A DNA stretch of 53,953 nucleotides. Origin: a virus (Duplodnaviria; Caudoviricetes). Under the pieces are notes generated by a model. The model saw only the letters and a program-made list of their open reading frames with translations, was not told where the DNA came from and did no database searches. The stretch is from positions 1 to 53,953 of the IMG/VR virus record IMGVR_UViG_3300027741_002957; one strand, 5' to 3'. This document shows, in pieces, positions 27,995 to 45,621 of this stretch (positions are counted from its first letter, which is position 1; each line of letters starts with the position of its first letter). The position numbers and the translations under genes are program-made.

Positions 27995-28000
27995 AGAACT

Positions 28001-28330
28001 GATGCTGTTTGACGGAAGGTGAATGAATTGTACAGTACCGGAGGGGCAGTACCTCCGCATCTCCACCAGTAAGCACATTGGTACCCATAGGTGTTAGAAA
28101 TATGGGGTAATTGCATTAACACTCGTCCGGTGTGCTTGCTCGTGGGGATGAAACAGGATCGCCTGGCAATATGAAGACCAACTTTAGGTATTGGGTAAGA
28201 CACGACTCACAATCAGTTCAAAAAACAAAAATGACAATGACAACATTGCATTTGGAGACATGCTGCTAGCAGCATGAGCTCTTGGGCTTACAGGACGCCT
28301 AGAAACAGAAGAAGGCCCGCAAGGGCCTTC
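28001..28330 (+). ncRNA. ssrA: Circularly permuted (two-piece) tmRNA
   Basis: The acceptor piece ends in T-arm CGGAGG-GGCAGTA-CCTCCG plus CATCTCC-A-CCA (28068). The intervening segment is 28069-28143. The coding piece starts GGGGATG (28144), giving a 7-bp acceptor stem with G3.U70. The tag ORF 28233-28277 reads DNDNIAFGDMLLAA*. Confidence 0.92.
28311..28330 (+). terminator. Hairpin at the tmRNA 3' end
   Basis: GAAGGCCC-GCAA-GGGCCTTC. Confidence 0.75.
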
Positions 28331-28487
28331 ACCTATGATCACATGAACATTTGAGACAAAAAGATGATCATTGTGGAAAAAATTTTCATGTATAAACAGA
28401 CCTGAGATGCAGCAAGAAGATTTTGGGTTTTTCCCCCAACAACATCACTTCAATATTGCGTCCGGACAGGGTTTCCATTTATATTTG

Positions 28488-28532
28488 GTGTGATTTGATA
28501 ATGCTATCAAATCACACACACACAGACACACA
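28488..28532 (+). repeat. 13-bp hairpin followed by a CA-dinucleotide tract in a 5' leader
   Basis: GTGTGATTTGATA-ATGC-TATCAAATCACAC, then CACACACAGACACAC abutting RBS AGGAG. Confidence 0.8.
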
Positions 28533-28543
28533 GGAGAACAAAA

Positions 28544-28795
28544 ATGGAAGCTTTTGAAATTCGCTTAGAATTGGTAAGGATGGCTAAGGACCTTTTGATG
28601 GAAGAATGGCATGCAAACAGAAATGCTGCAGACTGCCAATTTACCCTTGATCGCGAGTTGGCCCTAAAAAATCAGAACGGAGAACCTGTTAACTATCCCA
28701 GCATAGCACCAGTTCCTTCAGTTGAAGAAATTACCAAAGTTGCTGTAAAACTCAATGCATTTGTCAGCCGTAGAGATGGCATTACAATGGACTAA
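28544..28795 (+). CDS. Small conserved T4-like phage protein (FEIRLEL.. family)
   Basis: MEAFEIRLELVRMAKDLL...PSVEEI...A..LNAFVS. Confidence 0.75.
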   Translation: MEAFEIRLELVRMAKDLLMEEWHANRNAADCQFTLDRELALKNQNGEPVNYPSIAPVPSVEEITKVAVKLNAFVSRRDGITMD

Positions 28796-28896
28796 AATGC
28801 GTTTTAACAAGTTATAAATCAATTAAAAAAATATCCAGGATCAACATGTCAATGTTAGAATCTCTGGAGTATTAGTCTAGAATAAAATTATGCTAC

Positions 28897-28927
28897 AACG
28901 GGGGGATGTTACCATCCCCCCGTTTTT
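28897..28927 (+). terminator. Rho-independent terminator
   Basis: AACGGGGGGATG-TTAC-CATCCCCCCGTT followed by TTT. Confidence 0.8.
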
Positions 28928-28934
28928 CATGAGG

Positions 28935-28962
28935 TTGACAAACATGCAGATTTGCATATGCT
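28935..28962 (+). promoter_or_regulatory. Sigma70-like promoter for the topoisomerase operon
   Basis: TTGACA-16-TATGCT. Confidence 0.55.
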
Positions 28963-28992
28963 AGTCATGTCGATACACAGTTGGGAATCATA

Positions 28993-30807
28993 ATGGCTAA
29001 AAAATCAAGCGAAGAAATTGTTAAATTAACCGACTACGACCATCATCGCTTGCGGACGGAAATGTATCTAGGCAGCCGCAATATTCACAGTCAAACAGTC
29101 ATAAATTGGAATGGTAGTCAGCTGATTGCAGAAGAAGTTGCTTGGACGCCGGCCGCATATTCTGCCTTTCGAGAGATATTTGACAATGCTCTGGATGAAG
29201 TTGTCGGTCATGGACATGGATCTCGCATTGATATCACCTACGATCCCAGTACTTTGACATTTGGTGTGTCAGATGATGGCCGTGGTATTCCAATTGACTG
29301 GGATGAAAATGAAAAAATGCACAAGGCTACCTTGGCACTGACGCAGGCTCGTGTTGGCAGGAATTTTGGCACACGTGAAGAAGTGCGTGGTACCAACGGT
29401 GTTGGTTCTTCTGTAGTTGTCAGTTGTTCGCGTTCATTCACCATCGACATCAAACGAGATGGCAAACGATTCCAACAGGAATTTAAAGAATGTACAGAAC
29501 TCATGCCAGATCTCAACATTGGTGAGCCGCGTATCTTCAACAGTACTATGAAATCGGGAACTGAAATCAATTTCACTCTCAGTTCGGTGGTTTTTCCCAA
29601 GGCCAAGATACCGTTGTCGTTTGTCAAGGCCAGGGTATTTGAAGTAGCTGCCAATCATCCTAAAATACGCTTTAGTTTCAATGGTGACAGAGTCGTAGTG
29701 GCCAAAAGCCTCGACAAGACTATGTTTGCCAACAATAATCCCGTGATCATCAGCATACAGGAAGAAAAGTTTCACAGCAATTACTACTTGATTCCGGGAT
29801 TTGGCTCCGAAGGCGAATTTGTGCACAGTACAGTTAACGATATACCTGCATTCAATGGCGGCCAACACATTGATGTGTTTAAAAGGTTGTTTTTCAGTGG
29901 CATGCTAAAAGCCATGGAACGTGAAAGCAAGCGTCGAGGACTGACTCCAAACCGCAGTGATATATCAGAAGGTCTATTGATTTACAACACCACTGTGATG
30001 CATGCTCCAAACTTTGACAGTCAAAGCAAAACACGCTTGATCAATGACGAGGTAGATCGTTGGATCAAAGCCAGTTTAGAAGATGAAAACACATTCAAAA
30101 ACATCCTACGTACTCATAAGGAGTGGTTGGATGAGATCTATGCTCGCTGTGCAGCACGTACTCAAAAACGCGATGATGCAGATATTGCCAAGGCCAATCG
30201 CAAACTGCTGCGCAACAAGGTCCCAAAACTTCTAGATGCCAACGGCAAGGATAGAAGCAAATGTATACTGTTGATATGCGAGGGTGATTGTCTAGCAGAA
30301 GATACAGCTATCGCAATATTTGAAGATGGAAGATTTTGTAGCAAAAAAATTAAAGACATCCAAATAGGTGATTTAGTTTTAACGCATAAAGGCAGAATTA
30401 AACCGGTATGTAATAAACAGGCAAAAATAACAGACGGAATTGCTATTACAACATCATCTGGAAAAACATTAAAAATAAGTCTTGAGCATAAAATACCTGT
30501 TTATAACACACAACTTAACCAATATGAAATTGTAAAAGGCAAAGATTTAGACAAGTCTAAACATAAACTGTTTTCCTCTATAATTGATATGGAGTCTACA
30601 TTTTTTGAAATCGTCGCTGTAAATGATTATGATGATGGAAAATTTAATAAATCAATTTCTTTTACAAATGGTATAATTAATCAAACCTGTATAACGTCCG
30701 AAAATCATTTATTCTCTGTTTTAAATAAATGCACTGCGACCATTGAAAAGGTAGCTGCTAAAAATCTAGACATTGATATCCATTTACTAATGGCACATAA
30801 TTTGTAG
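28993..30807 (+). CDS. Type IIA topoisomerase large (GyrB/ParE-like) subunit, N-terminal piece plus 172-aa IntN
   Basis: GHKL motifs EIFDNALDE, DDGRGIP, GTNGVG; FDSQSKTRL; KLLDAN...LLICEGD, then CLAEDT. Likely start is ATG 28993. Confidence 0.92.
   Translation: MAKKSSEEIVKLTDYDHHRLRTEMYLGSRNIHSQTVINWNGSQLIAEEVAWTPAAYSAFREIFDNALDEVVGHGHGSRIDITYDPSTLTFGVSDDGRGIPIDWDENEKMHKATLALTQARVGRNFGTREEVRGTNGVGSSVVVSCSRSFTIDIKRDGKRFQQEFKECTELMPDLNIGEPRIFNSTMKSGTEINFTLSSVVFPKAKIPLSFVKARVFEVAANHPKIRFSFNGDRVVVAKSLDKTMFANNNPVIISIQEEKFHSNYYLIPGFGSEGEFVHSTVNDIPAFNGGQHIDVFKRLFFSGMLKAMERESKRRGLTPNRSDISEGLLIYNTTVMHAPNFDSQSKTRLINDEVDRWIKASLEDENTFKNILRTHKEWLDEIYARCAARTQKRDDADIAKANRKLLRNKVPKLLDANGKDRSKCILLICEGDCLAEDTAIAIFEDGRFCSKKIKDIQIGDLVLTHKGRIKPVCNKQAKITDGIAITTSSGKTLKISLEHKIPVYNTQLNQYEIVKGKDLDKSKHKLFSSIIDMESTFFEIVAVNDYDDGKFNKSISFTNGIINQTCITSENHLFSVLNKCTATIEKVAAKNLDIDIHLLMAHNL
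30289..30807 (+). mobile_element. Split intein IntN with internally duplicated Hint segment
   Basis: Block A CLAEDT, then two block-B-like segments (KISLEHK and ITSENHL). AT-rich. Confidence 0.85.
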
Positions 30808-30816
30808 CTGAAAAAA

Positions 30817-30856
30817 ACAATTATTTGGATCTATTATGATAGATCCAAATAATTGT
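30817..30856. repeat. Perfect 18-bp inverted repeat between the intein halves
   Basis: ACAATTATTTGGATCTAT-TATG-ATAGATCCAAATAATTGT. Confidence 0.9.
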
Positions 30857-30892
30857 AAAAATACAATATCTAATAGTAGGTAAGGTACAACA

Positions 30893-31666
30893 ATGAATAT
30901 AAATGAAAGTTTGTTTTTAATGGAAGATATAATAGATATCTCTCCTATAGGGAAAACAAACATGTATGATATACAAGTTATGGATGACGAAACATTTGTA
31001 TTATCAAACGGACTGCTAAGTCATAATAGCGCAAAAAGCATGGTGGCCGCCGTTCGCCATCCCGAAATCCATGGTGCTCTGCCACTGCGTGGCAAAATCC
31101 TCAATGTCAGAGGAGAGTTGCCAAAGACCATTATTGAAAACCAAATCATCAGCGATATCATGACTTCACTGGGCGTTGGTCTAGGCCAACCTGCCAATCG
31201 GCGAGACATGCGGTATGGCAGTGTCTATCTAGCAGCAGATCAAGATCCCGACGGAGCCAATATTACTGCACTGTTGGTCAATTTTTTCTATCTACATTGG
31301 CCAGAATTGTTTGACCCAAAACTCCCTCCGGTATTTTATGTGTTCCAGACACCGTTCATCATACAGGAAAAGGGTAAGAAAAGAACCTACTGGTATGCCG
31401 ATGACTATCATCTCTACAATGCAGATGATTGGAAAGGGGCTCCAAAACCAACTCGTGCCAAGGGTTTGGGCAGTCTAGAAGAAATTGATTGGATACACAG
31501 TCTTTCTAATCCACGATTAATCCCCCTGACAGACGACGGAGCACTGTCAGAAGCCCTTGATTTGATTTTCAATGCAAGTCGCGCAGATGATCGCAAAGCC
31601 TGGGTAGCACTGAGTGGTGAGACTGCTGACACAACAATGTCCGGAAATCAGGCAGGACAAAACTAG
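30893..31666 (+). CDS. Topoisomerase large subunit C-terminal piece: IntC (45 aa, 30893-31027) plus Toprim
   Basis: MYDIQV..DETFVLSNGLLSHN|SAKS restores EGDSA. Also PLRGKILNV, DQDPDG, KGLGS. Confidence 0.92.
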   Translation: MNINESLFLMEDIIDISPIGKTNMYDIQVMDDETFVLSNGLLSHNSAKSMVAAVRHPEIHGALPLRGKILNVRGELPKTIIENQIISDIMTSLGVGLGQPANRRDMRYGSVYLAADQDPDGANITALLVNFFYLHWPELFDPKLPPVFYVFQTPFIIQEKGKKRTYWYADDYHLYNADDWKGAPKPTRAKGLGSLEEIDWIHSLSNPRLIPLTDDGALSEALDLIFNASRADDRKAWVALSGETADTTMSGNQAGQN

Positions 31667-31945
31667 ATGATCAACAACGATGTGATAAATTTCACTAGAG
31701 ATTATCAATATGAAATAGGTCGCATGCTGTTTTCACATGATCAAGAAAACCTGGAACATAGTTATGATCTACTGTTTAGTCTACACTGCCAGTCAGCAAT
31801 AGAATGGTGCAATGTGAATTATCCAGATCAAATTATCTATACCAGGCACTTTGAGCCCGGGAAGAACTTGGACCACAGCGTTTTGGCATGGTATGCTGTG
31901 TTCCCGGATCAATCCTCGCTGCTGCACTTTATACTTAGCCGCTAA
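31667..31945 (+). CDS. Small hypothetical protein
   Basis: 92 aa. The EWC...W...F.D....L.F.L pattern is shared with 51564-51800. Confidence 0.6.
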   Translation: MINNDVINFTRDYQYEIGRMLFSHDQENLEHSYDLLFSLHCQSAIEWCNVNYPDQIIYTRHFEPGKNLDHSVLAWYAVFPDQSSLLHFILSR

Positions 31946-31963
31946 CCTAGGATCGACACAGTT

Positions 31964-33322
31964 ATGACCAACATTGGTACCACAGGATTCATCAAGACTA
32001 CCAGCAGAGACTATTCAATTTATGTGTGTCAAAGCCGAGGAATACCAAGTGTAAGTGATGGTCTCAAAGACAGCCAGCGCAAAGCACTGTTTGTCATGAA
32101 AACACAAAATGAAAAACTGAAAACCATCTCATTAGCTGGTAGATTGATTTCAGAAAACATCTATCTACACTCTGATGCTTCTGCCTGTGATACCATTTCA
32201 ATGATGGCTGCGCCATACTGCAACAATGTACCATTGTTCAGTGGTATTGGCGCATTTGGAACCAGGGTTGGTCCCAGCGACTGGGGTGCCCCGCGCTATA
32301 CCTATGTAAAGAAAAATTCACACACAGAGGCTTTGATCTACACCGACTACGACATAATACCCCTCAAGGAAAACTATGACGGATCTGTGCTGGAACCAAA
32401 ACATTTCCTACCATTGATCCCATTGGTGCTGTTGAATGGTGTAAGTGGTATTGCGGTTGGTTGGAGCACAATGATACTGCCGCGCAAATTCTCTGACATC
32501 ATTAACGCTACACTGGCAGCTATTGACAAGAAAGACAAATTGCCAGCAATGATGCCAATTTATGAATACCTCGACTGTTTGGTTCGCGGTCTGGGCGACA
32601 ACGGGTATGAGTTTACGGGCAAGGTAAAGGTTGATGGCAGCACCGTTACGGTAATGGAACTACCTCCAGATCTTTCATTAGAAAAGTTTAAATCTAGATT
32701 GAACAAGATGGAAGATGATGAGCAGATACAAACCTATATTGATCGCAGTACCAAAGACATACGTATTGATGTGCGATTCAAACGCGGTACTATAGACGGT
32801 TGGACTGAAGAAAAAGCTATTGAATTTCTCAAGTTAAAAAGCAGAACCACCGAACGACTGGTAGTGCTGGACTGGGATGGCAACAACATCAAGCAGTATG
32901 ACAACAGTGAACTGCTGATGAGGGATTTTGTAGAATGGCGTCTGGGTTTTTATGCTGTGAGATATCAAAAACTCATCAAGGATGCCACATATCAACTGCA
33001 TTGGAATCAAGCACTCAAGGAGTGCTATGAACATGGTTTACCAGCATTTCTTGCCAAGGCCAAAAACAAAGGCGATATCCTAAAGAAGATACAAGAACTG
33101 ACAGTGAACATTCCAATTGATGCAGGGCAGCAGGATCGCATTGCCAGTTTGCCCAGTTATAGATGGGCAAGAGATGCGTATGATGAGACTCTGGCACGCA
33201 TCAATGAATTAACGTCAACTATAGACAATTACAAAAATATTCTCAACGACGAAAATCAAATGCGTGCAATTTACAAGCAGGAAGTAATGGCTTTGAAAAA
33301 ATTACCCAGCATTGACAGATAA
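31964..33322 (+). CDS. Type IIA topoisomerase medium (GyrA/ParC, gp52-like) subunit
   Basis: RGIPSVSDGLKDSQRK, YLH.D, APRYT (catalytic Tyr), LLNGVSGIAVGWST. Confidence 0.93.
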   Translation: MTNIGTTGFIKTTSRDYSIYVCQSRGIPSVSDGLKDSQRKALFVMKTQNEKLKTISLAGRLISENIYLHSDASACDTISMMAAPYCNNVPLFSGIGAFGTRVGPSDWGAPRYTYVKKNSHTEALIYTDYDIIPLKENYDGSVLEPKHFLPLIPLVLLNGVSGIAVGWSTMILPRKFSDIINATLAAIDKKDKLPAMMPIYEYLDCLVRGLGDNGYEFTGKVKVDGSTVTVMELPPDLSLEKFKSRLNKMEDDEQIQTYIDRSTKDIRIDVRFKRGTIDGWTEEKAIEFLKLKSRTTERLVVLDWDGNNIKQYDNSELLMRDFVEWRLGFYAVRYQKLIKDATYQLHWNQALKECYEHGLPAFLAKAKNKGDILKKIQELTVNIPIDAGQQDRIASLPSYRWARDAYDETLARINELTSTIDNYKNILNDENQMRAIYKQEVMALKKLPSIDR

Positions 33323-33330
33323 ATAACAAA

Positions 33331-33786
33331 ATGAAACTGCAAGATCTACACAACAGGCACCGAGCTGGCGCAGGCATTTTGATATACTGCTTGAAGACTG
33401 ACAAGTTCTTGATGATCCAACGCAGTGAATACGTGAATGAACCTCTGAAATGGGGCCTACCGGGGGGCAATGTAGATGGCAACGAAACCCCTGAATCGGC
33501 AGCACGCAGGGAAACTTTGGAAGAAATTGGTATGACCATTGGCGATGCACCGATGGTGCTGATTTATACCAACACTGTGCATGCTCCTCGTTTTACCTTT
33601 TATACTTTTGCCTGCACAGTGGCAAATGAATTTGAACCAAAACTCAATTATGAATCGTCTGACTACTGCTGGTGTAATCTAGACAGTCTACCAGAGACAC
33701 TGCATTGGGGAATGAAGCAGATGCTGAATCATGACAATGCTGCCAAACTGCTGCAGGCCTTTGTTCAAGAGCAGAAAAAACACTAA
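33331..33786 (+). CDS. Nudix hydrolase
   Basis: Nudix box GGNVDGNETPESAARRETLEEIG. Confidence 0.92.
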   Translation: MKLQDLHNRHRAGAGILIYCLKTDKFLMIQRSEYVNEPLKWGLPGGNVDGNETPESAARRETLEEIGMTIGDAPMVLIYTNTVHAPRFTFYTFACTVANEFEPKLNYESSDYCWCNLDSLPETLHWGMKQMLNHDNAAKLLQAFVQEQKKH

Positions 33787-33887
33787 TCCCAATTGTGAAC
33801 GCTACCATGGTAGCGATATGCAACCCGTCTAAAACCATTGACATAACAGTAGATGGTGTTAGTGTATGCGGACCTAGAGGATATTTT

Positions 33888-34874
33888 ATGGACCTGTTGT
33901 GCAAGGACAAAGTGTTAAAATTATTTGCCAACAGCAGGCAGTGCCTGCTGGGCATCAGCGGTGGCATAGACAGCATGTGTATGTTGACATGGTTTGCCAA
34001 AAATCGTTCAGAATTTCCGTTTGAAGTCAAAGCCATACATGTGAATCATGGGATCAATGCGCTCAGTGACACATGGGCACACTTTGTTGAGGATCGCTGT
34101 AGGGATTTGTCGATTGATCTTATCACAGTAAAAGTCAGCCTCGATGGTCTTGGTAATAATCTTGAATACGCCGCACGCAAGGCTAGATACCAAGCCTTTT
34201 GCGAATCACGTGCCGACAGCATTGTTCTAGCACATCATGCTAATGATCAATGCGAAAGTTTTTTCTTGAAACTTTTCCGAGGCAGCGGCATACGCGGTTT
34301 GAAAAGCATGTTACCTGCTGTGCCCTGCTGGTATGACGAATCTGTGACGGTGCTTAGACCAATGTTGGAAGTCACTCGGCCGCAGATCGAACTATGGGCC
34401 GAAGAACACAATATCACTGCTGTGCAAGACCCCAGCAATCGAGACAACAGTTACGACAGAAACTACATAAGAAACAAGATCTGGCCGGTCATTACTGATC
34501 GTTTTGGTGTAGCAGATGTCAACGTCCTGCGCAGTGTAGCTCATATCGAAGAGGCTTGGCAATTAACTAGAATTTTAGCTGATCAGGATCTGTCACGTGT
34601 CACTGCCAAACCAAATGTGCTGGATTGGTATCGAGTGAGAGACCTAGGCTATCTCCGCATTAAAAACATGGTGTTGAGGATTTTAGAACTAGAGGGAGTA
34701 TATACGTTTAGTGCAGGGCAGGTTGAACAGTTTGCCAATGGTCTGGTCACTGCAAATCTAGACAATCGCAACCAACTACTGACCAAAAATCTACGTATTC
34801 GCAAGATAGGCAAGAGAATCTTTGTCGAACGTTTGACGCCGACGGCTGCAGACAATAAACTAGTGCATGCATGA
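33888..34874 (+). CDS. tilS: tRNA(Ile)-lysidine synthetase
   Basis: SGGIDS, HVNHG, E..AR.ARY, AHHANDQ.E, RGSG, RPML, DPSN...YDRN.IR. Likely start is ATG 33888 after AGAGGA, with TTGACA at 33838. Confidence 0.9.
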   Translation: MDLLCKDKVLKLFANSRQCLLGISGGIDSMCMLTWFAKNRSEFPFEVKAIHVNHGINALSDTWAHFVEDRCRDLSIDLITVKVSLDGLGNNLEYAARKARYQAFCESRADSIVLAHHANDQCESFFLKLFRGSGIRGLKSMLPAVPCWYDESVTVLRPMLEVTRPQIELWAEEHNITAVQDPSNRDNSYDRNYIRNKIWPVITDRFGVADVNVLRSVAHIEEAWQLTRILADQDLSRVTAKPNVLDWYRVRDLGYLRIKNMVLRILELEGVYTFSAGQVEQFANGLVTANLDNRNQLLTKNLRIRKIGKRIFVERLTPTAADNKLVHA

Positions 34875-35586
34875 CAAATCCGCAATAATTGTAATACCGA
34901 CTACAGGAGCCAAAACCCTAGCCGATGCTGTGGCCAGTGCAACCACTCAAACACATACCAATACCACCTGTTTGGTCATCATCGATGGGCCAGAATTTGA
35001 ATCAGCAGCACTGAGCATACTACGGCAGTTTCCTTCTGTAAAACACATGACCCTGCCATGGAACACAGGCAGAAATGGCTGGTATGGACACAGAATATAT
35101 TTTCTCTCAGCGCCGTTGATAGAACAAGATTATTGGCTGGCGTTGGATCAAGACAATTGGTTTGAGCCCGATCATGTAACTAAAATGATCTCTGCCTGCG
35201 AAGCCAACAATTGGCGTTGGTGTCACAGCCTTCGCAAAATACACGATGCTCAGGGTAGGTGGATCTGCGATGATGATTGCGAAAGCCTTGGGCGTTGGCC
35301 GATCTATCTCAGCGACCAGCATCATTTAGTTGATACGTCTACCTATTGTATACGCAAAGATGTTATGATAGGCATGGCCCCTGCCTGGTATAGCGGTTGG
35401 GGTGGAGATCGACGCTTTTATTCTGCTATAGCTCAGCATGTACAGGATTTTGGTTGCACAGGCTATACCACAGCATGCTACAGATTGGATGGCAATCCAC
35501 AATCCGTGACCGCAGATTTTTTCATCAAGGGCAACAGTATCATGAATCAGCGTTATCCCAATGGACTACCTTGGCGAGCAAAATGA
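34867..35586 (+). CDS. Glycosyltransferase family 2
   Basis: VIPTTG, IIDG, LDQDNW (DxD), VDTS, GGDR. Confidence 0.78.
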   Translation: MHDKSAIIVIPTTGAKTLADAVASATTQTHTNTTCLVIIDGPEFESAALSILRQFPSVKHMTLPWNTGRNGWYGHRIYFLSAPLIEQDYWLALDQDNWFEPDHVTKMISACEANNWRWCHSLRKIHDAQGRWICDDDCESLGRWPIYLSDQHHLVDTSTYCIRKDVMIGMAPAWYSGWGGDRRFYSAIAQHVQDFGCTGYTTACYRLDGNPQSVTADFFIKGNSIMNQRYPNGLPWRAK

Positions 35587-35628
35587 TTATCTGTAACTGA
35601 GCCCATTAATTTTAAGGAAACCACCCGC

Positions 35629-36276: not shown

Positions 36277-36314
36277 ACCCCACGACTCCTACTCTATCAG
36301 TGATAAATACACGC

Positions 36315-37146: not shown

Positions 37147-37187
37147 AACTGATCTCCTTGTGCAGTTCACATATTTAGCAAGTTTTA

Positions 37188-37199
37188 TGCTGCACTGCA
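37188..37199 (-). promoter_or_regulatory. Putative PhaR (AniA) binding site
   Basis: TGCAGTGCAGCA on the minus strand fits the alphaproteobacterial PhaR consensus as I recall it (TGCRNYGCASMA). Confidence 0.5.
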
Positions 37200-37230
37200 A
37201 CATGTCACAGAGTATGGCTGCCTTGCGTCA

Positions 37231-37668: not shown

Positions 37669-37825
37669 CCTTGATTATGCTTACATGAAGCCCTATCCCA
37701 GCGGCATCAGCCAGCAACGCATTGAGGAGGTCCACTGTTTGGACCAATTGACTGGTCAATGATGTGCAGTGTCGCAGGGTAACCAAAAGGTCTTCTGGTT
37801 TAGAGGAGTTTGTCGTAGTTTCCAT
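37544..37825 (-). CDS. Hypothetical protein
   Basis: 93-aa ORF overlapping the Smr ORF by about 120 nt. Confidence 0.5.
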   Translation of the reverse strand: METTTNSSKPEDLLVTLRHCTSLTSQLVQTVDLLNALLADAAGIGLHVSIIKDENHVSGKTTQISFSVRQISYTLELAGPSKTRGSASVECLY

Positions 37826-38120
37826 ATGGTTATTATGTGGATCTATCTTGAAAACGTCTAGAAAAGCTCAGTTGTTGTGACCATGATCAAAACTGTGCTA
37901 TATAACATTGAGAGAACAAAGGCCAACCTAGGAACACTGCCCGGTTAGAATAACCAATGGTTTAACTACCATAGGTAAAACCTAAATATCATGCTGGGCC
38001 GATCTTAAGATCACAGCGTTATGATAGATATTGTTTTTGTCTATCAATGGTTTAGAACCACAACATTGACTTCAATGTGTCTGAATCATATAAACAACAA
38101 ATAAGGAGAGTGAAAACGTA

Positions 38121-38849
38121 ATGCGTATAAGCCACCTATTTCTGTACCTGAACCTATGTCTGGGAGCAACTTACATGTATTGTGCCCCAGCCATCGCAGT
38201 GATTACAGTATATCCAACTTCTAGGCATGACGAGGAGCCTCCAGATCTGGACTCAAAACCAATAATCATGGATATACCGTCTCAAAACACTACACCGGTG
38301 GCAATCGCAGTGCCCCCAACTGTATCCACCGACATCAAGGTCAAGACTGTTCAGCCAAAAACTATTCACAAAGCCACAGCCGATTTTAAATCAGTAACGA
38401 ACCTTAGACAACATCTTCCTCTTAACATACCCGAGGCCAATGACCTCAACGATCATGACAGACGAGAAATTGAGTGTATTGCATGGAATCTCTATTTTGA
38501 AGTAAGAGGTGGTAAAATGGATGAACAGATTGCCATAGCCTTTGTGCCTATCAATCGTATAGGCCTTCCAGATTTCGGTGATGATATCTGTACAAATGTT
38601 TTTCAATATACCATTCGCAATGGGGTTGTAAAACATCAGTTCAGTTGGGTAGGCAGAATTCTTGGTCCAAAATGGAAGCGTGAAGATGATTCTTGGGAAA
38701 AAATGCAGAAGATAGCCCTGAGTGTTTACCAACGTAGAATCCGTGATGTTGGACAAGGGGCTACCTATTTTCAAAGTGTACGATTGTCATCTAGTTGGGC
38801 CCATCATGCTAGAAAATTCAGATTGGGCGGTACTCTTTTCTGGAGTTAA
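38121..38849 (+). CDS. Cell wall hydrolase (SleB/Hydrolase_2 family) with N-terminal signal/anchor
   Basis: ECIAWNLYFEVRG, V.INR, IC.NVFQ, QFSW, GATYF. Confidence 0.85.
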   Translation: MRISHLFLYLNLCLGATYMYCAPAIAVITVYPTSRHDEEPPDLDSKPIIMDIPSQNTTPVAIAVPPTVSTDIKVKTVQPKTIHKATADFKSVTNLRQHLPLNIPEANDLNDHDRREIECIAWNLYFEVRGGKMDEQIAIAFVPINRIGLPDFGDDICTNVFQYTIRNGVVKHQFSWVGRILGPKWKREDDSWEKMQKIALSVYQRRIRDVGQGATYFQSVRLSSSWAHHARKFRLGGTLFWS

Positions 38850-38912
38850 CCACAACACCAGGTTTGCAGTATTTTGATAAATACTCCACATACTGCATGC
38901 AAGGAATCATAA

Positions 38913-40058
38913 ATGGCTACGTATTCATACAACACTACCTATTTTGAGATCACATACAACAACAACACGCCAACCAATTATTCGGCGTTGACCGGTTGCC
39001 AAGCAGGAGGTCTTGATAGTGAAACGGCTTGGCAGATACAAAACTGCATCAGAGCCACTGGTAGCACAATAGTAAGCGGTACACCTTTGGCCAACGGGTC
39101 AACTATAATTGTCAATGGGTATACTGTGACATTCAGTTCTACAGATACGCTGGCAGATGTCATTGTCAAACTCAATCTCATGACAAAATTTACAGGAATA
39201 GCAGCTGATCAAAGTGTTGCTGGTGGATATCTCACAGTCTTCAATGCTCCCGGATATGAAGGGACACCATTCTATCTCATGGAAGGCAACGGTACCGCGC
39301 TTGCCACTTTGGGGTTCACCAGCCCTAGCCAATTCATCTATGCACCCAGCGTGATTGCATCTAGCACCTACAGCAACGTGAGCAGCAATTCTAATGTCAA
39401 CATCAACAACACTACTATAACATTCACGGCAGGCAACCTTGCCGCGGCTGCTGCACGTATCAATTCATATACAACCTGCACGGGCGTGGCGGCGTCTGCT
39501 GCTGGACCGTACCTGCAGTTGTCATCGGCCGGTTGGACTCAACCGATAGTCATTAACGGCGGCAACGCATTAACAGCACTTGGCTTTTCAGCAGGTGTTT
39601 ATCCTGGTCCAATCAGCAACATTACACTCAGCGAAGACAAGGAACGAGCCAATATGCGTTGGTTTCAAGCTGTGAGCCAATTGGAAAGCACAGCAACACC
39701 AAACTATTTTGGCAGCATTACACGCACCGGCAACATCGGCAATGCAGCGCTCAACACCATTACCTGGACAGTAGGCTACGGTTGTTATTCTGCACTACAG
39801 ACCACTGCCACTGCATGCGAACCAGATTATGGTACCACCTACACAGGTACGGCTGCCATACAACGCTGGGTTGCACGAGCCATGGTCAACACATGGACCA
39901 GCAATCGCAAAGTGTTTGCCCCTTGTTCCTGTAAGGTACTGGGTTTTGCCTACTATCGTAATCCTGCAAGAATTTTGCCTATTACAGCGCAGGGTGTTGA
40001 CACCAATGTAATAGTAGTTTCTAATAATATTGTCGTTACGCAGATTCCAGGCGTTTAA
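38913..40058 (+). CDS. Virion structural protein (repeated flagellin-hook-like beta domains)
   Basis: Two repeats of IxINxxTxTF...L....IN....GxxA...ALxxLGF. Late promoter at 38876. Confidence 0.6.
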   Translation: MATYSYNTTYFEITYNNNTPTNYSALTGCQAGGLDSETAWQIQNCIRATGSTIVSGTPLANGSTIIVNGYTVTFSSTDTLADVIVKLNLMTKFTGIAADQSVAGGYLTVFNAPGYEGTPFYLMEGNGTALATLGFTSPSQFIYAPSVIASSTYSNVSSNSNVNINNTTITFTAGNLAAAAARINSYTTCTGVAASAAGPYLQLSSAGWTQPIVINGGNALTALGFSAGVYPGPISNITLSEDKERANMRWFQAVSQLESTATPNYFGSITRTGNIGNAALNTITWTVGYGCYSALQTTATACEPDYGTTYTGTAAIQRWVARAMVNTWTSNRKVFAPCSCKVLGFAYYRNPARILPITAQGVDTNVIVVSNNIVVTQIPGV

Positions 40059-40075
40059 CCTAGGATACTAAAACT

Positions 40076-40489
40076 TTGAAACCCAGTGCACACCTACACC
40101 TTCTTATTACGGCTGAGATACAGAACCCGCCGGGCCCAGAAGATTGCGAAAAAATCAATGAGTTCATGCGAGGCATGGTTAAACATGTCCGTATGAACAT
40201 CATGCTTGAACCAAACACAGCATATTGCAGTGATCTCGGTAATGAAGGTATAACCAGCGTAGTAATACTAACAACCAGTCATTGTTCCATGCACATATGG
40301 AACCTGCCAGCCCCAGCACCAAGCATCATGCAATTTGATCTATATAGTTGCGCTGCATTTAGTGTCGATGAGGTATTGGCATACATTGCTGCACATTTCA
40401 AACTTGTCAGTGTAAAATACAAATTTTTAGATAGAGAAAACGGTTTTATCGAGTTAGATCACGGCACCACCTTGTTTAACAAACACTGA
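40076..40489 (+). CDS. speD: Pyruvoyl-dependent decarboxylase, SpeD/AdoMetDC-like
   Basis: GITSVVILTTSHCSMHIW (self-cleavage T|SH in place of E|SH) and QFDLYSC. Confidence 0.8.
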   Translation: MKPSAHLHLLITAEIQNPPGPEDCEKINEFMRGMVKHVRMNIMLEPNTAYCSDLGNEGITSVVILTTSHCSMHIWNLPAPAPSIMQFDLYSCAAFSVDEVLAYIAAHFKLVSVKYKFLDRENGFIELDHGTTLFNKH

Positions 40490-40501
40490 GGAAAACCATC
40501 G

Positions 40502-41725
40502 ATGAAATTGATCAACCTACTGCTGTTGCTGTGTGCCCTGGGTCTCAGCAGCACTGCAGCCTATTACAGTATTGCAGGATTGGCCAGCATATTCAGCAGT
40601 GCATTCTGGCCAGTGGTCGTTATGGCCACTATTCTCGAAGTGAGCAAACTGGTACTGGCTAGTTTTCTCTATCAAAAATGGACTATACTGCCTCGGGGAC
40701 TGCGTATATATCTAACTGCCAGTGTTATGGTGCTGATGCTGATCACCAGCCTTGGCATCTTTGGTTTTCTCAGCAAGGCACATGTTGATCAAGGACTTAC
40801 CACCTCAGAATTAGTGCTGCGCATTGACCAACTCCATCAGCGTCGCATCGAACTTGATAAAACAATCTCACGTTATCAAACTCAGTTAACCCAACTAGAT
40901 ACCAGCATCAATATCAAACTTCAAAACAATAGGTCAATTGATGCTGACGTGCTGCGGAAACAACAGGCTCCAGAGCGTACAGACATCAAGACCCAACTAG
41001 ATTCAGCCTCAGCACAGATAGTAAAGATAACCAACGAAGAAACTGATTTAAAAAGTCAATTACAAATAGTAGAAAGCAAGGTTGGTCCAATCAAATACAT
41101 CGCAGAATTTTTTGCAAATGGCAAAGAAGTTGATCTCGACAAGGCAGTACGCTATATGATCATCATAATCGTTATGGTATTTGATCCACTAGCTGTACTG
41201 ATGCTGATCGGTGCCAATATCAGTTTCAAAAGTGATCAACAAATCATTACTGCACTACCAGCAGCGCCTCTAGTGGAACCTGAAATACCTGCAACAGCAC
41301 CAACTGTAGACTTAGATCAGCTACATGCGGTTATTGCAGAAAGTATGGACGCGTGGCTGAACAAAGCTCTATCTCATCCAGAACTAAAGTCACCTGACCA
41401 AACTGAGACTGTGTCTAGTTCGTTAGTTGTACAAGAAAATACACCACCTATTCCACAAATATCCAACCAACTCCCTACTACAGAAGAACGCAAAGAACCA
41501 ACGCTATCAACGGAATTCAAGATAGATACAGAATCAAAAGTAGAACCAATTACAACTGTACAAGAAAATGACTACAAACGAAAATCGATGACCGGCATCA
41601 TACCTAATAAAATATCTGCTTCAACAATACCACCACCTTTAGAACAAGGTCACGAACGTCCTGAACACCAAAGCAAAGACTTTCTACCAACACACATACC
41701 TCAGGATAGGCGCAGATGGCCATAA
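40502..41725 (+). CDS. Membrane protein with coiled coil
   Basis: N-terminal TM helices (AAYYSIAGL..IF, LEVSKLV, TSLGIFGFLSKAH), coiled coil, VGPIKYIA, VFDPLAV. Confidence 0.75.
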   Translation: MKLINLLLLLCALGLSSTAAYYSIAGLASIFSSAFWPVVVMATILEVSKLVLASFLYQKWTILPRGLRIYLTASVMVLMLITSLGIFGFLSKAHVDQGLTTSELVLRIDQLHQRRIELDKTISRYQTQLTQLDTSINIKLQNNRSIDADVLRKQQAPERTDIKTQLDSASAQIVKITNEETDLKSQLQIVESKVGPIKYIAEFFANGKEVDLDKAVRYMIIIIVMVFDPLAVLMLIGANISFKSDQQIITALPAAPLVEPEIPATAPTVDLDQLHAVIAESMDAWLNKALSHPELKSPDQTETVSSSLVVQENTPPIPQISNQLPTTEERKEPTLSTEFKIDTESKVEPITTVQENDYKRKSMTGIIPNKISASTIPPPLEQGHERPEHQSKDFLPTHIPQDRRRWP

Positions 41726-42957
41726 CAATTTATCATCATTGTAGTTTTTGCGAAAAAACACAACAGCAGATTAAAAAATTAATTGCAGGTCCAGACGTTT
41801 ATATTTGCAATGAATGTGTTAACCTATGTTATGACCTTATCAAGGAAGAACCTGCTAAAATCATACCACAAGACGAACTAACTCCACAACAGGTCACAAG
41901 TTATCTTGATGAATATATAGTTGGACAGGAAAAAGCCAAAAAGACACTGTCAGTGGCCGTATACAACCATATCAAACGCATCAATAATCCTGTGATCGAC
42001 GGTGTTGAAATAGAAAAAAGCAATATGTTGTTTATTGGTGGTTCAGGCACTGGCAAAACATATTTGATACAGACTGTGGCCAAAATTGTCAATGTACCAT
42101 TGGCCATCGTTGACGCTACCAGCTTAACCGAAAGCGGCTACGTTGGTTTGGATGTAGAAGATGCCATTTCTAAACTCTATCAAGCAGCTGATCAAGACAT
42201 TGAAAAAACCAAGTGCGGCATTGTCTACATAGATGAAATTGACAAAAAAGGGCGCAAGTCAGAAAACACCTCGGTAACACGAGACGTCAGTGGCGAAGGC
42301 GTTCAACAGGCACTGCTGAAAATGATTGAAGGTTGCGATGTAAAAATAATGCCCAATGGCGGTAGGAAGAATCCCAACGGAGACTTCATCACAATTAATA
42401 CCAAAAATATACTATTCATCGTAGGTGGAGCCTTTGAAGGTCTTGACAAAATAATCGAAAAGCGACAAACTCAAAATACAACAGGTGTAGGTTTTGGCTC
42501 AAAAATCAAAGATTCTACCAACACCAAGGGCAATTACGATTTAATCAAAACTGTGCGTGGCGATGACATGGTAAAATTTGGGATGATCCCAGAACTAATT
42601 GGTCGACTGCCAATTATTGTCACATTTGAAGATCTTGACGAATCTGCATTGATTAGGATATTGACTGAACCAAAAAATGCTATCATAAAACAGTTTCAAA
42701 AAATGTTTGCTCTTGACAGCATCAATCTTATCTTTGCACCAGACAGTTTGCAGGCAATATCTTCAATGGCAATTGAGATGAAAACCGGAGCCAGGGGACT
42801 GCGTAGCATAGTTGAAAACCTGTTGCTTGACCTGCATTTTTCCCTCCCGCAGATGTCTAAGAATGGAGTTAAAAAAATTATAATATCTAAGGAAACAGTA
42901 GAAAACATGAAAGAACCAGTGCTGGTTTATGATCAAAACAAGGATTCAATACTTTGA
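41716..42957 (+). CDS. clpX: ATP-dependent Clp protease ATPase subunit ClpX
   Basis: Zn domain CSFC...ICNECV, GSGTGKT, GYVG.DVE, IDEIDK, RDVSGEGVQQALLK, VGF loop, GARGLR. Confidence 0.95.
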   Translation: MAITIYHHCSFCEKTQQQIKKLIAGPDVYICNECVNLCYDLIKEEPAKIIPQDELTPQQVTSYLDEYIVGQEKAKKTLSVAVYNHIKRINNPVIDGVEIEKSNMLFIGGSGTGKTYLIQTVAKIVNVPLAIVDATSLTESGYVGLDVEDAISKLYQAADQDIEKTKCGIVYIDEIDKKGRKSENTSVTRDVSGEGVQQALLKMIEGCDVKIMPNGGRKNPNGDFITINTKNILFIVGGAFEGLDKIIEKRQTQNTTGVGFGSKIKDSTNTKGNYDLIKTVRGDDMVKFGMIPELIGRLPIIVTFEDLDESALIRILTEPKNAIIKQFQKMFALDSINLIFAPDSLQAISSMAIEMKTGARGLRSIVENLLLDLHFSLPQMSKNGVKKIIISKETVENMKEPVLVYDQNKDSIL

Positions 42958-43529
42958 GTGGGCATTGGCATAATGATCAACGTCGCAGTCAACGACGTGC
43001 AGAAGATCCAATCAAGGCCAGTATAGTGGCCAACGAGCGCATCAAACATCCTGAAGTAAGATTAGTAGACGAGCAGGGTCAACAGATAGGTATTGTCCCT
43101 ATCAAACAAGCCATGTGGCAGGCACGCAATCTAGGTCTCGACCTAATTGAAATCACCGCAGATGCTGTGCCACCTGTGGTTAGGATAGTAGATCTCAACA
43201 AATGGATCTACAATCTTCGCCAAGAAAAAAAGAAGAAAGAGCGAAAAGCTAGAGAGAATGCTGTGGTCATTAAGGAAATACAACTGCGGCCAGTAACAGA
43301 CAAGCATGACATTGAAACAAAACAGGGGCATGCTCGCGAATTCCTAGCTGACAACAACAAGGTCAAGGTGGTGATCAAATTCCGTGGCCGTGAGTTGAGT
43401 TTCAAAGAAAAGGGATTTGAGATCATGGATACCTTTATCAAAGGTCTCGATGCTTGCAAGTTGGAAAAGACGCCAGAAATGAACGGCCGTACCATAATGG
43501 CCATACTAGCACCAAATGGCAAAAATTGA
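42954..43529 (+). CDS. infC: Translation initiation factor IF-3
   Basis: NERI...EVRLVD, LDLIEI....PPV.RI.D, KEIQLRP....HD, KVKV.IKFRGRE. Confidence 0.93.
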   Translation: MSGHWHNDQRRSQRRAEDPIKASIVANERIKHPEVRLVDEQGQQIGIVPIKQAMWQARNLGLDLIEITADAVPPVVRIVDLNKWIYNLRQEKKKKERKARENAVVIKEIQLRPVTDKHDIETKQGHAREFLADNNKVKVVIKFRGRELSFKEKGFEIMDTFIKGLDACKLEKTPEMNGRTIMAILAPNGKN

Positions 43530-43580
43530 CGGTTTTTCAAATACCTGCTAAAATATATTGTCACTTACAAGGATATAGAA

Positions 43581-43883
43581 ATGGATAATGACGATTTCGT
43601 GCTGCGTAAAAAGGGCATGACAGTTAAGGTTTTCAACAACAATATAGATGGTGCAATCGTACAACTCAAACGTCGTATGAACAGCGAAGGTGTAAACAAA
43701 GAACTTCGCAAGCGGAAACATTACACATCTCCAAGTGTTGTACGCAGACAGAAACTGGCAGAAGCCAAGGTTCGGTGGAAGAAGAAGTATAGCCAAATTA
43801 TGGAAATAGAAATGCCTTCAAAGAAAAAGACCAAACGCGATTACAAACCTGTTAACAGAGCTGTGATTGCATCACCAACCTAA
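43581..43883 (+). CDS. rpsU: Ribosomal protein bS21
   Basis: VKVFNNNIDGAI..LKR....EG..KELRKRKHY.SPS..RR, with a basic C-terminal extension. Confidence 0.85.
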   Translation: MDNDDFVLRKKGMTVKVFNNNIDGAIVQLKRRMNSEGVNKELRKRKHYTSPSVVRRQKLAEAKVRWKKKYSQIMEIEMPSKKKTKRDYKPVNRAVIASPT

Positions 43884-44668
43884 TGCTAGATACTGGCAAG
43901 ATATCAAATGCAGCAAAAGCAGTTGATTGGAAACCTGCCGACCTAAAGATTTACCATAGATTCAAACAACAATTTCACAATTGGATAGCATCATCTAAAC
44001 AACCAGTCAAGGGTTTGCCAGACACTTTTTACATAGTGACTGGCATCACCGATGCATTTAACCAAACCTACGGTCTGTTCAAAAACATAGGTGTATTTCC
44101 TGGAGAATATGGTTATCATAGATTGGCTATTGGCAATCGATGTACTACAGATCTTGCAATGGCAGATGTAATCATCATAAGCCACCCATTTAGTGCTGAT
44201 GGCATGTCAGCACATGACAAACTGGCCAAAGCTGATTTATATGGCAAACCAATATTTGTCGACTGTGCATTTTTTGGGTCCTGCCGGAATATCAATTTTG
44301 ATTTCTCCAAATATAAAAACATACAAAGCGTGTGTTTTTCACTTTCAAAAACATTTGGTACTGGTCATCACAGGGTTGGATTATTATATACGGCTGCAGC
44401 ATATCCTGCAGCGGTTTATGAACAATGGCATTACCCTGTTGTTTCGTCGGCGCAGCATCATTATGGTCTACTTGATACCATGTCTCCAGATGATCTAGCC
44501 GTGAAATATGGCCGTGTACAACTTGAAATCTGCGAGGAACTTGGCATAGTTCCCTCTGATACAGTGATATTTGGATTAGATTATTCAGATAAATTTGCTC
44601 AATTCGACAGAGGCGGGGTCAATAGGTTGTGCATAAGTGATCTGATACGAGATAGATATCACGGTTGA
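43883..44668 (+). CDS. PLP-dependent aminotransferase-like protein
   Basis: G.TDAF, GEY.YH, ISHPFS, VDCAFFG, FSLSKTFG...RVG. Confidence 0.7.
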   Translation: MLDTGKISNAAKAVDWKPADLKIYHRFKQQFHNWIASSKQPVKGLPDTFYIVTGITDAFNQTYGLFKNIGVFPGEYGYHRLAIGNRCTTDLAMADVIIISHPFSADGMSAHDKLAKADLYGKPIFVDCAFFGSCRNINFDFSKYKNIQSVCFSLSKTFGTGHHRVGLLYTAAAYPAAVYEQWHYPVVSSAQHHYGLLDTMSPDDLAVKYGRVQLEICEELGIVPSDTVIFGLDYSDKFAQFDRGGVNRLCISDLIRDRYHG

Positions 44669-44749
44669 CATTTCAGAAAAGAAAATGTAAATAGTATTTG
44701 TCAGCAACTGCTGACAAGGAGATGCCTTAAAGGGTCTCTTATGCTACAA

Positions 44750-44778
44750 ACTTCGCTCACAGAGGAGGTAAAATCATG
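44750..44778 (+). promoter_or_regulatory. ROSE-like RNA thermometer hairpin over the hsp20 SD
   Basis: ACUUC(G)CUC-ACA-GAGGAGGU: UCGCU pairs with the SD leaving a bulged G. Two upstream hairpins lie at about 44700-44740. Confidence 0.7.
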
Positions 44779-45267
44779 CGAAGCCTAACACTCACACAAC
44801 AAATCGATGACCTTTTTCGCGACTTCAACCGGTTTGCAGTTGGATATGAACCAACCTTCCGCATGTTGGATCAAGCACGCACTACTCAAACCAACGGTTA
44901 TCCACCATACGATCTCGAAAGCACCGGTGAAAACAACTACCGTCTCAGCATGGCTGTAGCGGGTTTTACAGCAGACGATCTCGAAATCACTCTGCAAAAT
45001 GGTCTACTAACCATTGACGGCAAAATCAAACAAGATGAAACTCGCACATACCTGCATAAGGGCATTGCTGGTCGCAGTTTCCGCCGCCAATTCTCGCTGC
45101 ACCCCTATGTCGAAATCATAGGCAGCAGTCTTAGCGATGGAATTCTTACTGTGGAATTTGTTCATGAGATACCAGAAAGCATGAAACCACGTAAGATTAC
45201 AATCAATGGTCCAACTGCTGAAATAAAAGTTTTGAATCCGTCGTCTGGGGTTACTGCTACGGCTTGA
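44776..45267 (+). CDS. Small heat-shock protein Hsp20 (IbpA-like)
   Basis: YPPYD, AVAGF, YLHKGIA.RSF.R.F, DGIL, IPE..KPRKI.I. Confidence 0.95.
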   Translation: MRSLTLTQQIDDLFRDFNRFAVGYEPTFRMLDQARTTQTNGYPPYDLESTGENNYRLSMAVAGFTADDLEITLQNGLLTIDGKIKQDETRTYLHKGIAGRSFRRQFSLHPYVEIIGSSLSDGILTVEFVHEIPESMKPRKITINGPTAEIKVLNPSSGVTATA

Positions 45268-45292
45268 CAGGCTAAAACAATCCGCGTAGTAT
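45264..45292 (+). promoter_or_regulatory. Sigma70 promoter for clpS
   Basis: TTGACA-17-TAGTAT. Confidence 0.7.
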
Positions 45293-45312
45293 ATCATTAA
45301 GGGAGAAGGCGT

Positions 45313-45621
45313 ATGGTAACTGCTGATGTGATAGAAGAGGTGATGACTGCACATAAGGTTGCCATACGTCCTCCTAAAATGTTCAATGTGATACTGCACA
45401 ACGATCCGCATACCACTATTGAATTTGTGGTTTTGATCTTGATGAGTATTTTCTACAAGAGTTTTGAAAATGCCACAGCGTTAACTATGGACATTCATGA
45501 GAAGGGTAAAGGTATCGCTGGTACCTATACATTTGAAATTGCAAGCCAAAAACAAACAGACACATTGAATGCAGCTAGAGCTAACGGATTTCCTCTAAAA
45601 TGTGACCTAGTTGAAGCCTAA
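45313..45621 (+). CDS. clpS: Clp protease adaptor ClpS
   Basis: P.MFNVILHNDPHTT.EFVV.IL, IHEKGKGIAG.Y.FEIA..K, GFPL. Confidence 0.93.
   Translation: MVTADVIEEVMTAHKVAIRPPKMFNVILHNDPHTTIEFVVLILMSIFYKSFENATALTMDIHEKGKGIAGTYTFEIASQKQTDTLNAARANGFPLKCDLVEA

Follow-up and report, generated by a model that had tools for sequence, protein, structure and literature searches.

The subject of this analysis is a set of genes for translation and protein turnover in a viral DNA of 53,953 bases, IMG/VR record IMGVR_UViG_3300027741_002957, which was analysed over its whole length and is referred to below as the window. All seven genes that a preliminary description of this DNA had named, encoding a transfer-messenger RNA (tmRNA), a small Smr-domain protein, ClpX, IF3, bS21, Hsp20 and ClpS, were recovered where it had placed them through matches to Rfam, Pfam and NCBIfam models. 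On the plus strand, clpX, infC and rpsU lie in tandem and are followed, after one intervening open reading frame (ORF), by hsp20 and clpS, as had been described, with the Smr gene on the minus strand. The 17.6-kb span that holds these genes is not one cluster: the tmRNA lies 13.4 kb upstream of clpX, from which about 20 unrelated genes separate it, and the Smr gene has the opposite orientation. Among the genes between the parts are those for topoisomerase II, a NUDIX protein, TilS, a glycosyltransferase, a cell-wall hydrolase and S-adenosylmethionine (AdoMet) decarboxylase, together with several unknown ORFs, and the tmRNA, Smr and Clp genes are neither contiguous and co-directional nor co-inherited, as the parts of a single operon would be. 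The record is classed as linear and has a CheckV completeness estimate of 13%, from which the phage would be roughly 400 kb in size; its G+C content ranges from 38 to 47%. The phage is uncultured, and near-identical DNA is found in several freshwater metagenome runs.

The tmRNA gene (27961-28319, plus strand) is of the alpha-type, circularly permuted (two-piece) kind: it matches the Rfam alpha_tmRNA model (RF01849) at 79.2 bits, against a gathering threshold of 50, and the tmRNA_permuted model (RF04321) matches 28001-28277 at 74.8 bits, against a threshold of 47, whereas ARAGORN called no tRNA and no tmRNA in the window. The permuted order is kept, with the 3′ acceptor strand and its encoded CCA followed by an intervening segment and then by the 5′ strand and the tag frame. 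CATCTCC with ACCA (28058-28068) precedes GGGGATG (28144-28150), and the two strands form seven pairs including G3·U, a pair that serves as an identity element for alanine. From the covariance-model alignment and translation, the tag frame (28233-28277, plus strand) reads (A)DNDNIAFGDMLLAA-stop, and the tag ends, as had been reported, in LAA, the ClpX degron. The resume codon at 28233-28235 is GAC (Asp), at a position that is occupied by GCN (Ala) in relatives and in the consensus of Rfam.

A sigma-70 consensus promoter (TTGACA-18-TATAAT; 27965-27994, plus strand) ends 7 nucleotides (nt) before the tmRNA_permuted match at 28001 and is the only 12/12 match among the 53 promoter-like sites scanned in 27500-46700; the sigma-70-like sites before rpsU and clpS score 10/12, which does not set them apart from the shuffled background (53 sites against 44.5 expected). 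At the 3′ end of the tmRNA lies a G+C-rich hairpin (28311-28330) whose 8-pair stem includes 6 G-C pairs; it might act as a plus-strand terminator, a role that we put forward conditionally since the scan lists the hairpin for the minus strand. With its promoter, an acceptor stem bearing CCA and a tag that ends in LAA, the tmRNA looks functional. A leftover attachment-site fragment was considered as another origin for the locus; we reject it, since each of the two Rfam models is matched over its full length.

These features recur among other phage tmRNAs. In a strict search, a 7-bp acceptor stem was found beside ACCA in 20 of 23, with many compensatory changes, and the G3·U pair was present in 19 of the 20 that have the stem; the segment between CCA and the 5′ strand varies from 3 to 410 nt. 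Of 24 phage tmRNAs that were read, 19 have a tag ending in LAA and two a tag ending in MAA, one, a match below the cut-off, has a tag ending in AVA, and for two no tag was found. A blastn search with the window tmRNA against 50,697 phage records gave no match. In Sinorhizobium phage Phosso, a cultured relative discussed below, a permuted tmRNA occupies PV764938.1 349553-350242 on the minus strand (108-113 bits); its tag is ANDNVSTKVALAA, its CCA is separated from its 5′ strand by about 410 nt, and it falls in a gap without an annotated feature in its record. Metagenome contigs break repeatedly within the window tmRNA (28017-28277), one joint skips 28036-28155, and in one contig from an RNA library the acceptor stem differs and only about 4 nt separate CCA from the 5′ strand; the breaks and the variant stem suggest strain-level variants of the tRNA-like part.

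The Smr gene (37231-37668, minus strand) encodes a small SmrB-like protein (Pfam Smr, E=5.5e-10, 39.7 bits against a cut-off of 25.7), which an alternative public gene call starts at M4, giving 142 amino acids (aa). Its DLH motif is intact and GKSG stands at the GxG site, both as originally noted. The catalytic motif L66-D67-L68-H69 (LDLHG) is invariant in 11 aligned sequences and in all 20 distinct sequences, and the GxG position in relatives is occupied by GKGG, GKSG, GRRG or GRGG. An AlphaFold2 model of the protein has a mean predicted local distance difference test (pLDDT) score of 80; residues 1-30 are disordered, residues 31-46 form a helix, and a linker then leads to an SMR domain at pLDDT >90. 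Foldseek matches this model to the SMR domains of MutS2, YdaL and N4BP2 and to that of the SmrB-bound disome (chain 7qgr_v, E=9e-4). Within the predicted helix lies E32DQRVW37, for which a comparison of motifs by eye gives E10DQALF15 as the equivalent in Escherichia coli SmrB (KPEDQRVWNAY in the window protein, SEEDQALFRQL in SmrB). The pattern [DE]xxxW is kept in all 14 distinct long forms, which comprise 12 sets of viral loci including the window together with Phosso and Agrobacterium phage Atu_ph07, and in the 11-sequence alignment W is invariant and D33 is 90% conserved. According to passages of the work on E. coli SmrB, the proteobacterial SmrB clade is defined by an N-terminal "--xxxa" helix (E10DQALF15) that hooks onto uS2 (10.1101/2021.08.16.456513). 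The invariant LDLH and the N-terminal helix motif argue that the phage Smr protein probably has an SmrB-like role.

Several results weigh against this assignment. The serine of CGKSGK (G100-K-S-G103), a motif that stands where GxG is usual, takes the place of the second Gly and aligns to G134 of SmrB; the N-terminal extension is missing in five more distant phage Smr homologues; and MutS2, SmrA and SmrB are all equally far from the SMR domain. At E<=0.001 there was no match to the NCBIfam SmrB equivalog, the only matches being to the MutS2 C-terminus (29 bits) and SmrA (19 bits). A PDB profile search with the Smr alignment returned MutS2, N4BP2 and YdaL, not SmrB, and hhalign gave 72% probability to E. 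coli SmrB with the SMR domain alone aligned. The best PDB sequence match is the Smr domain of Thermus MutS2 (E=0.3). The protein might be a DNA-nicking enzyme for repair, recombination or host-DNA attack rather than a ribosome-collision RNase, as would fit its best sequence matches (the MutS2 C-terminus and SmrA, not SmrB), the lack of the extension in distant homologues and the name 'DNA-nicking Smr family endonuclease' given to many homologues by the Joint Genome Institute (JGI). We regard that function as unlikely while still giving it some weight: the JGI name is an automatic label, the helix motif kept in every distinct long form matches the ribosome hook of the SmrB clade, and MutS2 is itself now known as a collided-ribosome factor, according to the abstract of PMC10897456 and the titles of PDB entries 8qpp and 8r55. 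A tblastn search of the 50,697 phage records with the Smr protein found matches in Phosso and Atu_ph07 only, and a related-locus search with the same query returned no locus, the relatives having been recovered through clpX loci. Directly downstream of the Smr gene is a small DUF3563 protein (36979-37203, minus strand; Pfam DUF3563, 28.8 bits), a homologue of which stands beside Smr in 12 of 80 related loci.

The ClpX unfoldase (41716-42957, plus strand) matches the NCBIfam equivalog NF003745 at 559.7 bits, against a cut-off of 359, and keeps the C4 zinc finger, GGSGTGKT, IVYIDEIDK, the GYVG pore loop and the sensor-2 arginine, while its VGF aligns to the IGF of the solved ClpX 9ndj, the loop that we take to dock onto ClpP. 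It is followed by the IF3 gene (infC; 42954-43529, plus strand; TIGR00168, 158.5 bits against a cut-off of 60), which encodes both IF3 domains and has no ATG start, the candidates being TTG at 42954 and GTG at 43026, and then by rpsU (43581-43883, plus strand; TIGR00030, 49.6 bits against 28.95), encoding a bS21 with a basic C-terminal extension. The 261-aa ORF that separates rpsU from hsp20 (43883-44668, plus strand) has no family match, lacks a counterpart throughout the 80 related loci, and looks like a lineage-specific insertion into an otherwise fixed block. The IbpA-like small heat-shock protein Hsp20 (44776-45267, plus strand) is recognised by Pfam HSP20 at 62.9 bits and reaches 111 bits with the NCBIfam IbpA model, under its cut-off of 212; like IF3, bS21 and ClpS, it scores over its Pfam threshold.

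The ClpS adaptor (45313-45621, plus strand) scores 95.1 bits with Pfam ClpS, against 23, and 80.7 bits with the NCBIfam equivalog, under its cut-off of 112; its best solved match is Caulobacter ClpS 3dnj (E=3.7e-17). In a set of 65 distinct phage ClpS sequences, every one has N30, T34 and G70, while D31 and H62 are each found in 64, and we take Asn30, Asp31, Thr34 and His62 to be pocket residues. ClpS inhibits the action of ClpAP on ssrA-tagged proteins. The phage protein is assigned to the ClpA N-degron route and not to the ssrA-ClpX route: ClpS is a modulator of ClpAP (Dougan 2002, as cited in passages of Attai 2018, PMC6102473), and more distant relatives carry their own ClpA.

When IMG/VR was scanned with ClpX, 145 relatives were confirmed, and for the best 80 of these 145 loci the genes within 10 kb of clpX were counted by tblastn with the window proteins. 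Hsp20 was found in 76/80 loci, ClpS in 74/80, IF3 in 62/80, a cell-wall hydrolase in 34/80, bS21 in 26/80 and Smr in 22/80. A homologue of the ORF directly upstream of clpX was present in 75/80; in the window this ORF (40502-41725, plus strand) encodes a membrane/coiled-coil protein of 407 aa with a low-complexity tail, its 3′ end overlaps the clpX start by 10 nt, and it has no Pfam, NCBIfam or PHROG match, the nearest Atlas clusters being viral hypotheticals. Order and strand are constant, reading membrane ORF-clpX-(infC)-(rpsU)-hsp20-clpS, and wherever a locus has both hsp20 and clpS, the two adjoin each other. Because the arrangement recurs in related viral contigs, it represents inherited synteny and not chance.

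Whole-record searches covered 48 records from 50 of the 80 loci, chosen as the closest relatives and the longest contigs. ClpS was detected in 47/48, the sole exception being a fragment cut just past clpX. A tmRNA was found over the Rfam cut-off in 19/48 and at E<=0.001 in 22/48, and Smr in 21/48, including all 11 of the closest records. Each of the 19 tmRNAs that pass the cut-off shares its strand with clpX and lies 7-23 kb upstream of it, and ten records that reach at least 25 kb upstream of clpX have none (both worked out by hand from coordinates). In one record, G010 (locus L072), the ClpX match spans residues 112-406 only, the upstream membrane ORF is 2.9 kb away compared with about 1.2-1.8 kb elsewhere, and a second, partial tmRNA-like match (42.5 bits) stands next to the full tmRNA; an insertion in clpX and a tmRNA duplication may account for these features.

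The preliminary description had also suggested looking beyond the window for smpB, sspB and clpP. It had reported SmpB as missing from the window, where our search likewise found no match, nor one to ArfA (PF03889), and across the 48 records both SmpB and SspB were absent (0/48 each), whereas members of the ClpP family occur in 21/48, above 200 bits in 13/48. ClpA-like proteins (797-902 bits, under the cut-off of 993) occur in 14/48, and the window itself has no ClpA. The closest complete genome, G005 (452.8 kb; ClpX 72% identical), encodes Smr and ClpS, and no tmRNA or ClpA was found in it; its sole ClpP-family gene is an orthologue of the ClpP-like paralogue of Phosso (59% identity) and is 31% identical to canonical ClpP. 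Since this relative lacks canonical ClpP, it is plausible that the phage makes use of host ClpP.

These distributions bear directly on the most integrated explanation of the gene set, namely that Smr, tmRNA, ClpX and ClpS form one co-adapted pipeline selected mainly to free ribosomes stalled by host defences that cleave mRNA or tRNA. The parts do lie within one 17.6-kb region with the key motifs kept in each, the tmRNA is upstream of clpX on the same strand in 19/19 records, and almost every tag has the ClpX degron at its end. Near clpX, Smr and bS21 tend to be found together (odds ratio 28, p=2e-8, in one subclade and uncorrected for phylogeny), and passages of the SmrB study describe contact between the SMR domain and bS21 as well as bacterial smr-rpsU operons (10.1101/2021.08.16.456513). 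The co-occurrence of tmRNA and Smr that would be expected of such a pipeline did not emerge: in the 48 records both were found in 12, tmRNA only in 10, Smr only in 9 and neither in 17 (odds ratio 2.27, p=0.24), and in the 22 records of at least 100 kb the odds ratio is 0.24 (p=0.20). Three complete IMG/VR records, taken together with Phosso and Atu_ph07, divide into two with both genes, two with Smr alone (G005 and Atu_ph07) and one with tmRNA alone (G014). The tmRNA and Smr are thus distributed independently of each other. Moreover, about 20 unrelated genes intervene, Smr is on the other strand, ClpS is an adaptor of ClpA (Dougan 2002, cited in passages of PMC6102473), no evidence relating to defence was found, and IF3, bS21 and Hsp20, which had been counted with the route, have no role in trans-translation. 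We therefore consider a single dedicated pipeline quite improbable. What stands of the nearly complete trans-translation route first proposed is the tmRNA with its features, the motifs of ClpX, and the DLH motif and helix of Smr, as parts that do not make up one unit.

The window is related to Atu_ph07 and to the Sinorhizobium phages Phosso and AP-J-162, with a ClpX identity of 50-53% to Phosso and Atu_ph07; megablast of window positions 37000-46000 against the 50,697 phage records gave no match. In both Phosso and Atu_ph07, clpX and infC adjoin topoisomerase II genes and an Smr homologue lies 8-9 kb from clpX. Phosso also encodes bS21, ClpS, a canonical ClpP and the ClpP-like paralogue, and Atu_ph07 encodes ClpP and ClpS; SmpB was found in neither phage, and a tmRNA is not detectable in Atu_ph07. 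The clade takes in Atu_ph07, Phosso and AP-J-162, all on Rhizobiaceae, with the window as a freshwater member, and the block also occurs in PA5oct on Pseudomonas.

For these cultured phages another function has been put forward, in which the Clp and chaperone genes serve virion assembly, replication control or aggregate clearance and the tmRNA would be an unrelated translation accessory. Passages of the Atu_ph07 paper list ClpX, ClpA, ClpB, ClpP, ClpS and DnaJ and propose replication control, assembly and aggregate clearance (Attai 2018, PMC6102473), and functions of this kind are also proposed in passages on AP-J-162, which report one tmRNA, clpX beside IF-3 and topoisomerase, Hsp20, DnaJ and S21 (PMC11242549). 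The position of clpX beside topoisomerase II genes in the window, Atu_ph07 and Phosso, to which passages of both papers point, fits such a function, as do the adjacency of hsp20 and clpS, a DnaJ-type zinc-finger protein at 48584-49723 of the window, and the ten long upstream regions that have no tmRNA. Left unexplained are the retention of LAA/MAA degrons, although host-derived tmRNAs would end so anyway, and the constant placement of the tmRNA with respect to clpX, and we hold this account to be as doubtful as the single pipeline. We give very little credence to the further idea that ClpS works with phage ClpX instead of ClpA, so that N-degron substrates, substrates held by small heat-shock proteins and LAA-tagged peptides would be fed to a hub of phage ClpX and host ClpP, an arrangement prompted by a complete genome that lacks canonical ClpP and ClpA in which clpX, hsp20 and clpS are nevertheless tightly linked, and one that would amount to a phage-controlled proteolysis hub fed by tmRNA and an SmrB-like nuclease.

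Contigs from RNA libraries touch several of these genes. In one lake metatranscriptome, represented by contigs only, pieces at >=99% identity fall on 28156-28296 (the coding piece of the tmRNA), on 28520-28871, on 38908-39342 and on two small minus-strand ORFs beside Smr, and one 810-nt contig at the same level of identity runs from hsp20 into clpS. An 83-aa ORF just 3′ of the tmRNA (28544-28795, plus strand), which has no family match and has homologues near clpX in 9/80 loci, is covered by the deepest contig of the RNA library (depth 10.5). RNA run X12 gave no contig on the Smr coding body, clpX, infC or rpsU, and RNA run X14 gave small pieces only; being contigs, both are uninformative on expression or its absence.

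The reading that we favour, with confidence that is somewhat better than even, is that the window holds a conserved translation-and-proteostasis neighbourhood of a widespread giant-phage clade, whose genes supplement the systems of the host and do not make up one dedicated pathway. From gene identities, motifs, synteny and distribution, we infer the activities and partners that follow. The tmRNA would be transcribed from its own strong sigma-70 promoter, charged by the alanyl-tRNA synthetase of the host, as the retained G3·U pair implies, and delivered with host SmpB, which would be needed because no phage-encoded SmpB was found; it could then free ribosomes stuck at mRNA 3′ ends and append the LAA-ending tag. 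Smr would probably bind ribosomes through its SmrB-type N-terminal helix and cut mRNA at collisions, and the cleavage products may be substrates for phage or host tmRNA. ClpX is predicted to unfold LAA-tagged and other substrates into ClpP, which in the subclade of the window is probably that of the host. Hsp20 and ClpS may handle aggregates and N-degron substrates via host or phage ClpA, and IF3 and bS21 might bias initiation towards phage mRNAs.

Certain points count against the supplementing neighbourhood. The record is an estimated 13% of one genome, and phage gene order can persist by descent without functional coupling. Window ClpX has RKN aligned to the RKH of 9ndj, presumably a functional loop. 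Its ClpS is an outlier in having P32: at this site, the counterpart of the second Asp in the NDD motif of bacteria, 44 of the 65 phage sequences have D and 17 have N. The RNA library may hold DNA carry-over, and its contigs show neither strand nor transcript ends.

Other genes of the window lie outside this set, which is accompanied by topoisomerase II, glutaredoxin, agmatinase, AdoMet decarboxylase, TilS and a tail-fibre-like protein. The large subunit of ribonucleotide reductase is split across four ORFs with intein/Hint matches within 18119-22254 (plus strand), and a DnaB-like helicase (851-2560, plus strand) also has intein and homing-endonuclease Hint matches. An agmatinase/arginase-family gene (25565-26656, plus strand) and the AdoMet decarboxylase (40076-40489, plus strand) suggest phage-encoded polyamine synthesis; in Phosso, a gene of the glutathionylspermidine synthase family is present in the corresponding neighbourhood. 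The TilS-like lysidine synthetase (33795-34874, plus strand; N-terminal domain 167 bits against 93.6) occurs in a window in which ARAGORN reports no tRNA gene.

Much of this gene content has been described before. Passages of a further study discuss an action of giant-phage ClpS together with host ClpAP, chaperone functions for ClpX and ClpA, and a part for IF3 in ribosome rescue or phage translation (Iyer 2021, PMC7824862), and passages on huge phages report tmRNAs, SmpB, IF3 and S21 (Al-Shayeb 2020, PMC7162821). Smr goes unmentioned in passages of PMC6102473, PMC11242549 and PMC7824862. A literature search on the phrase 'phage-encoded tmRNA' found no paper, and in one on SmrB, phage, tmRNA and collided ribosomes no title or abstract opening concerns phage Smr. 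The gene set is already annotated in cultured giant phages and is neither a new kind of system nor a newly found single pathway. The additions made here are modest: a conserved SmrB-type hook in the phage Smr family, a tmRNA position fixed upstream of clpX, near-universal LAA/MAA tags, the independence of tmRNA and Smr, and a closest complete relative without canonical ClpP and ClpA, with the unannotated tmRNA of Phosso as a by-product. Together they outline a large, environmentally widespread giant-phage clade with a permuted tmRNA upstream of a conserved clpX-hsp20-clpS block and, in many members, a compact Smr. The cultured phages Phosso, AP-J-162 and Atu_ph07 provide material on which it can be tested whether infecting phages enhance ribosome rescue and the turnover of proteins.

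Comparison with known systems places the phage genes as follows. With the E. coli route of SmrB, tmRNA/SmpB and ClpXP (passages of 10.1101/2021.08.16.456513) they share an N-terminal helix of the "--xxxa" type that a linker joins to a DxH-bearing SMR domain, a tag that ends in LAA, and a ClpX with pore loops and a putative ClpP-docking loop. They differ from it in a linker of about 25 aa compared with about 80, in GxG reading G-K-S, and in that SmpB and SspB are not phage-encoded and the genes are not co-inherited. The tmRNA resembles the two-piece tmRNA of Alphaproteobacteria (RF01849, RF04321) in its permuted order, its G3·U pair and a tag that contains NDN and has LAA at its end, and differs in being phage-borne, in its resume codon (GAC, not GCN) and in being uncalled by ARAGORN. 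As in the ClpS-ClpAP N-degron pathway, the phage adaptor is of the ClpS fold family with Asn30, Asp31, Thr34 and His62 invariant or nearly so, whereas its gene is linked to clpX and hsp20 and not to clpA.

Among phages, the window shares with the set of Atu_ph07, AP-J-162 and Phosso the topoisomerase II, clpX and infC neighbours, the presence of ClpS and the absence of SmpB. A tmRNA is common to the window, Phosso and AP-J-162, in contrast to Atu_ph07. In Phosso, 16 kb separate ClpS from clpX and the tmRNA is on the opposite strand at a distance of 31 kb, whereas in the window, whose DNA is from freshwater metagenomes, hsp20 and clpS follow the rpsU block; and Phosso and Atu_ph07 carry the canonical ClpP that G005 lacks. 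Pseudomonas phage PA5oct differs in having no infC in the block, a gammaproteobacterial host and a ClpS that is 39.6% identical, yet its genes EST35_0255-0260 present the same block on one strand, with clpX, rpsU, two hypothetical genes, a heat-shock protein gene and clpS already annotated in that order.

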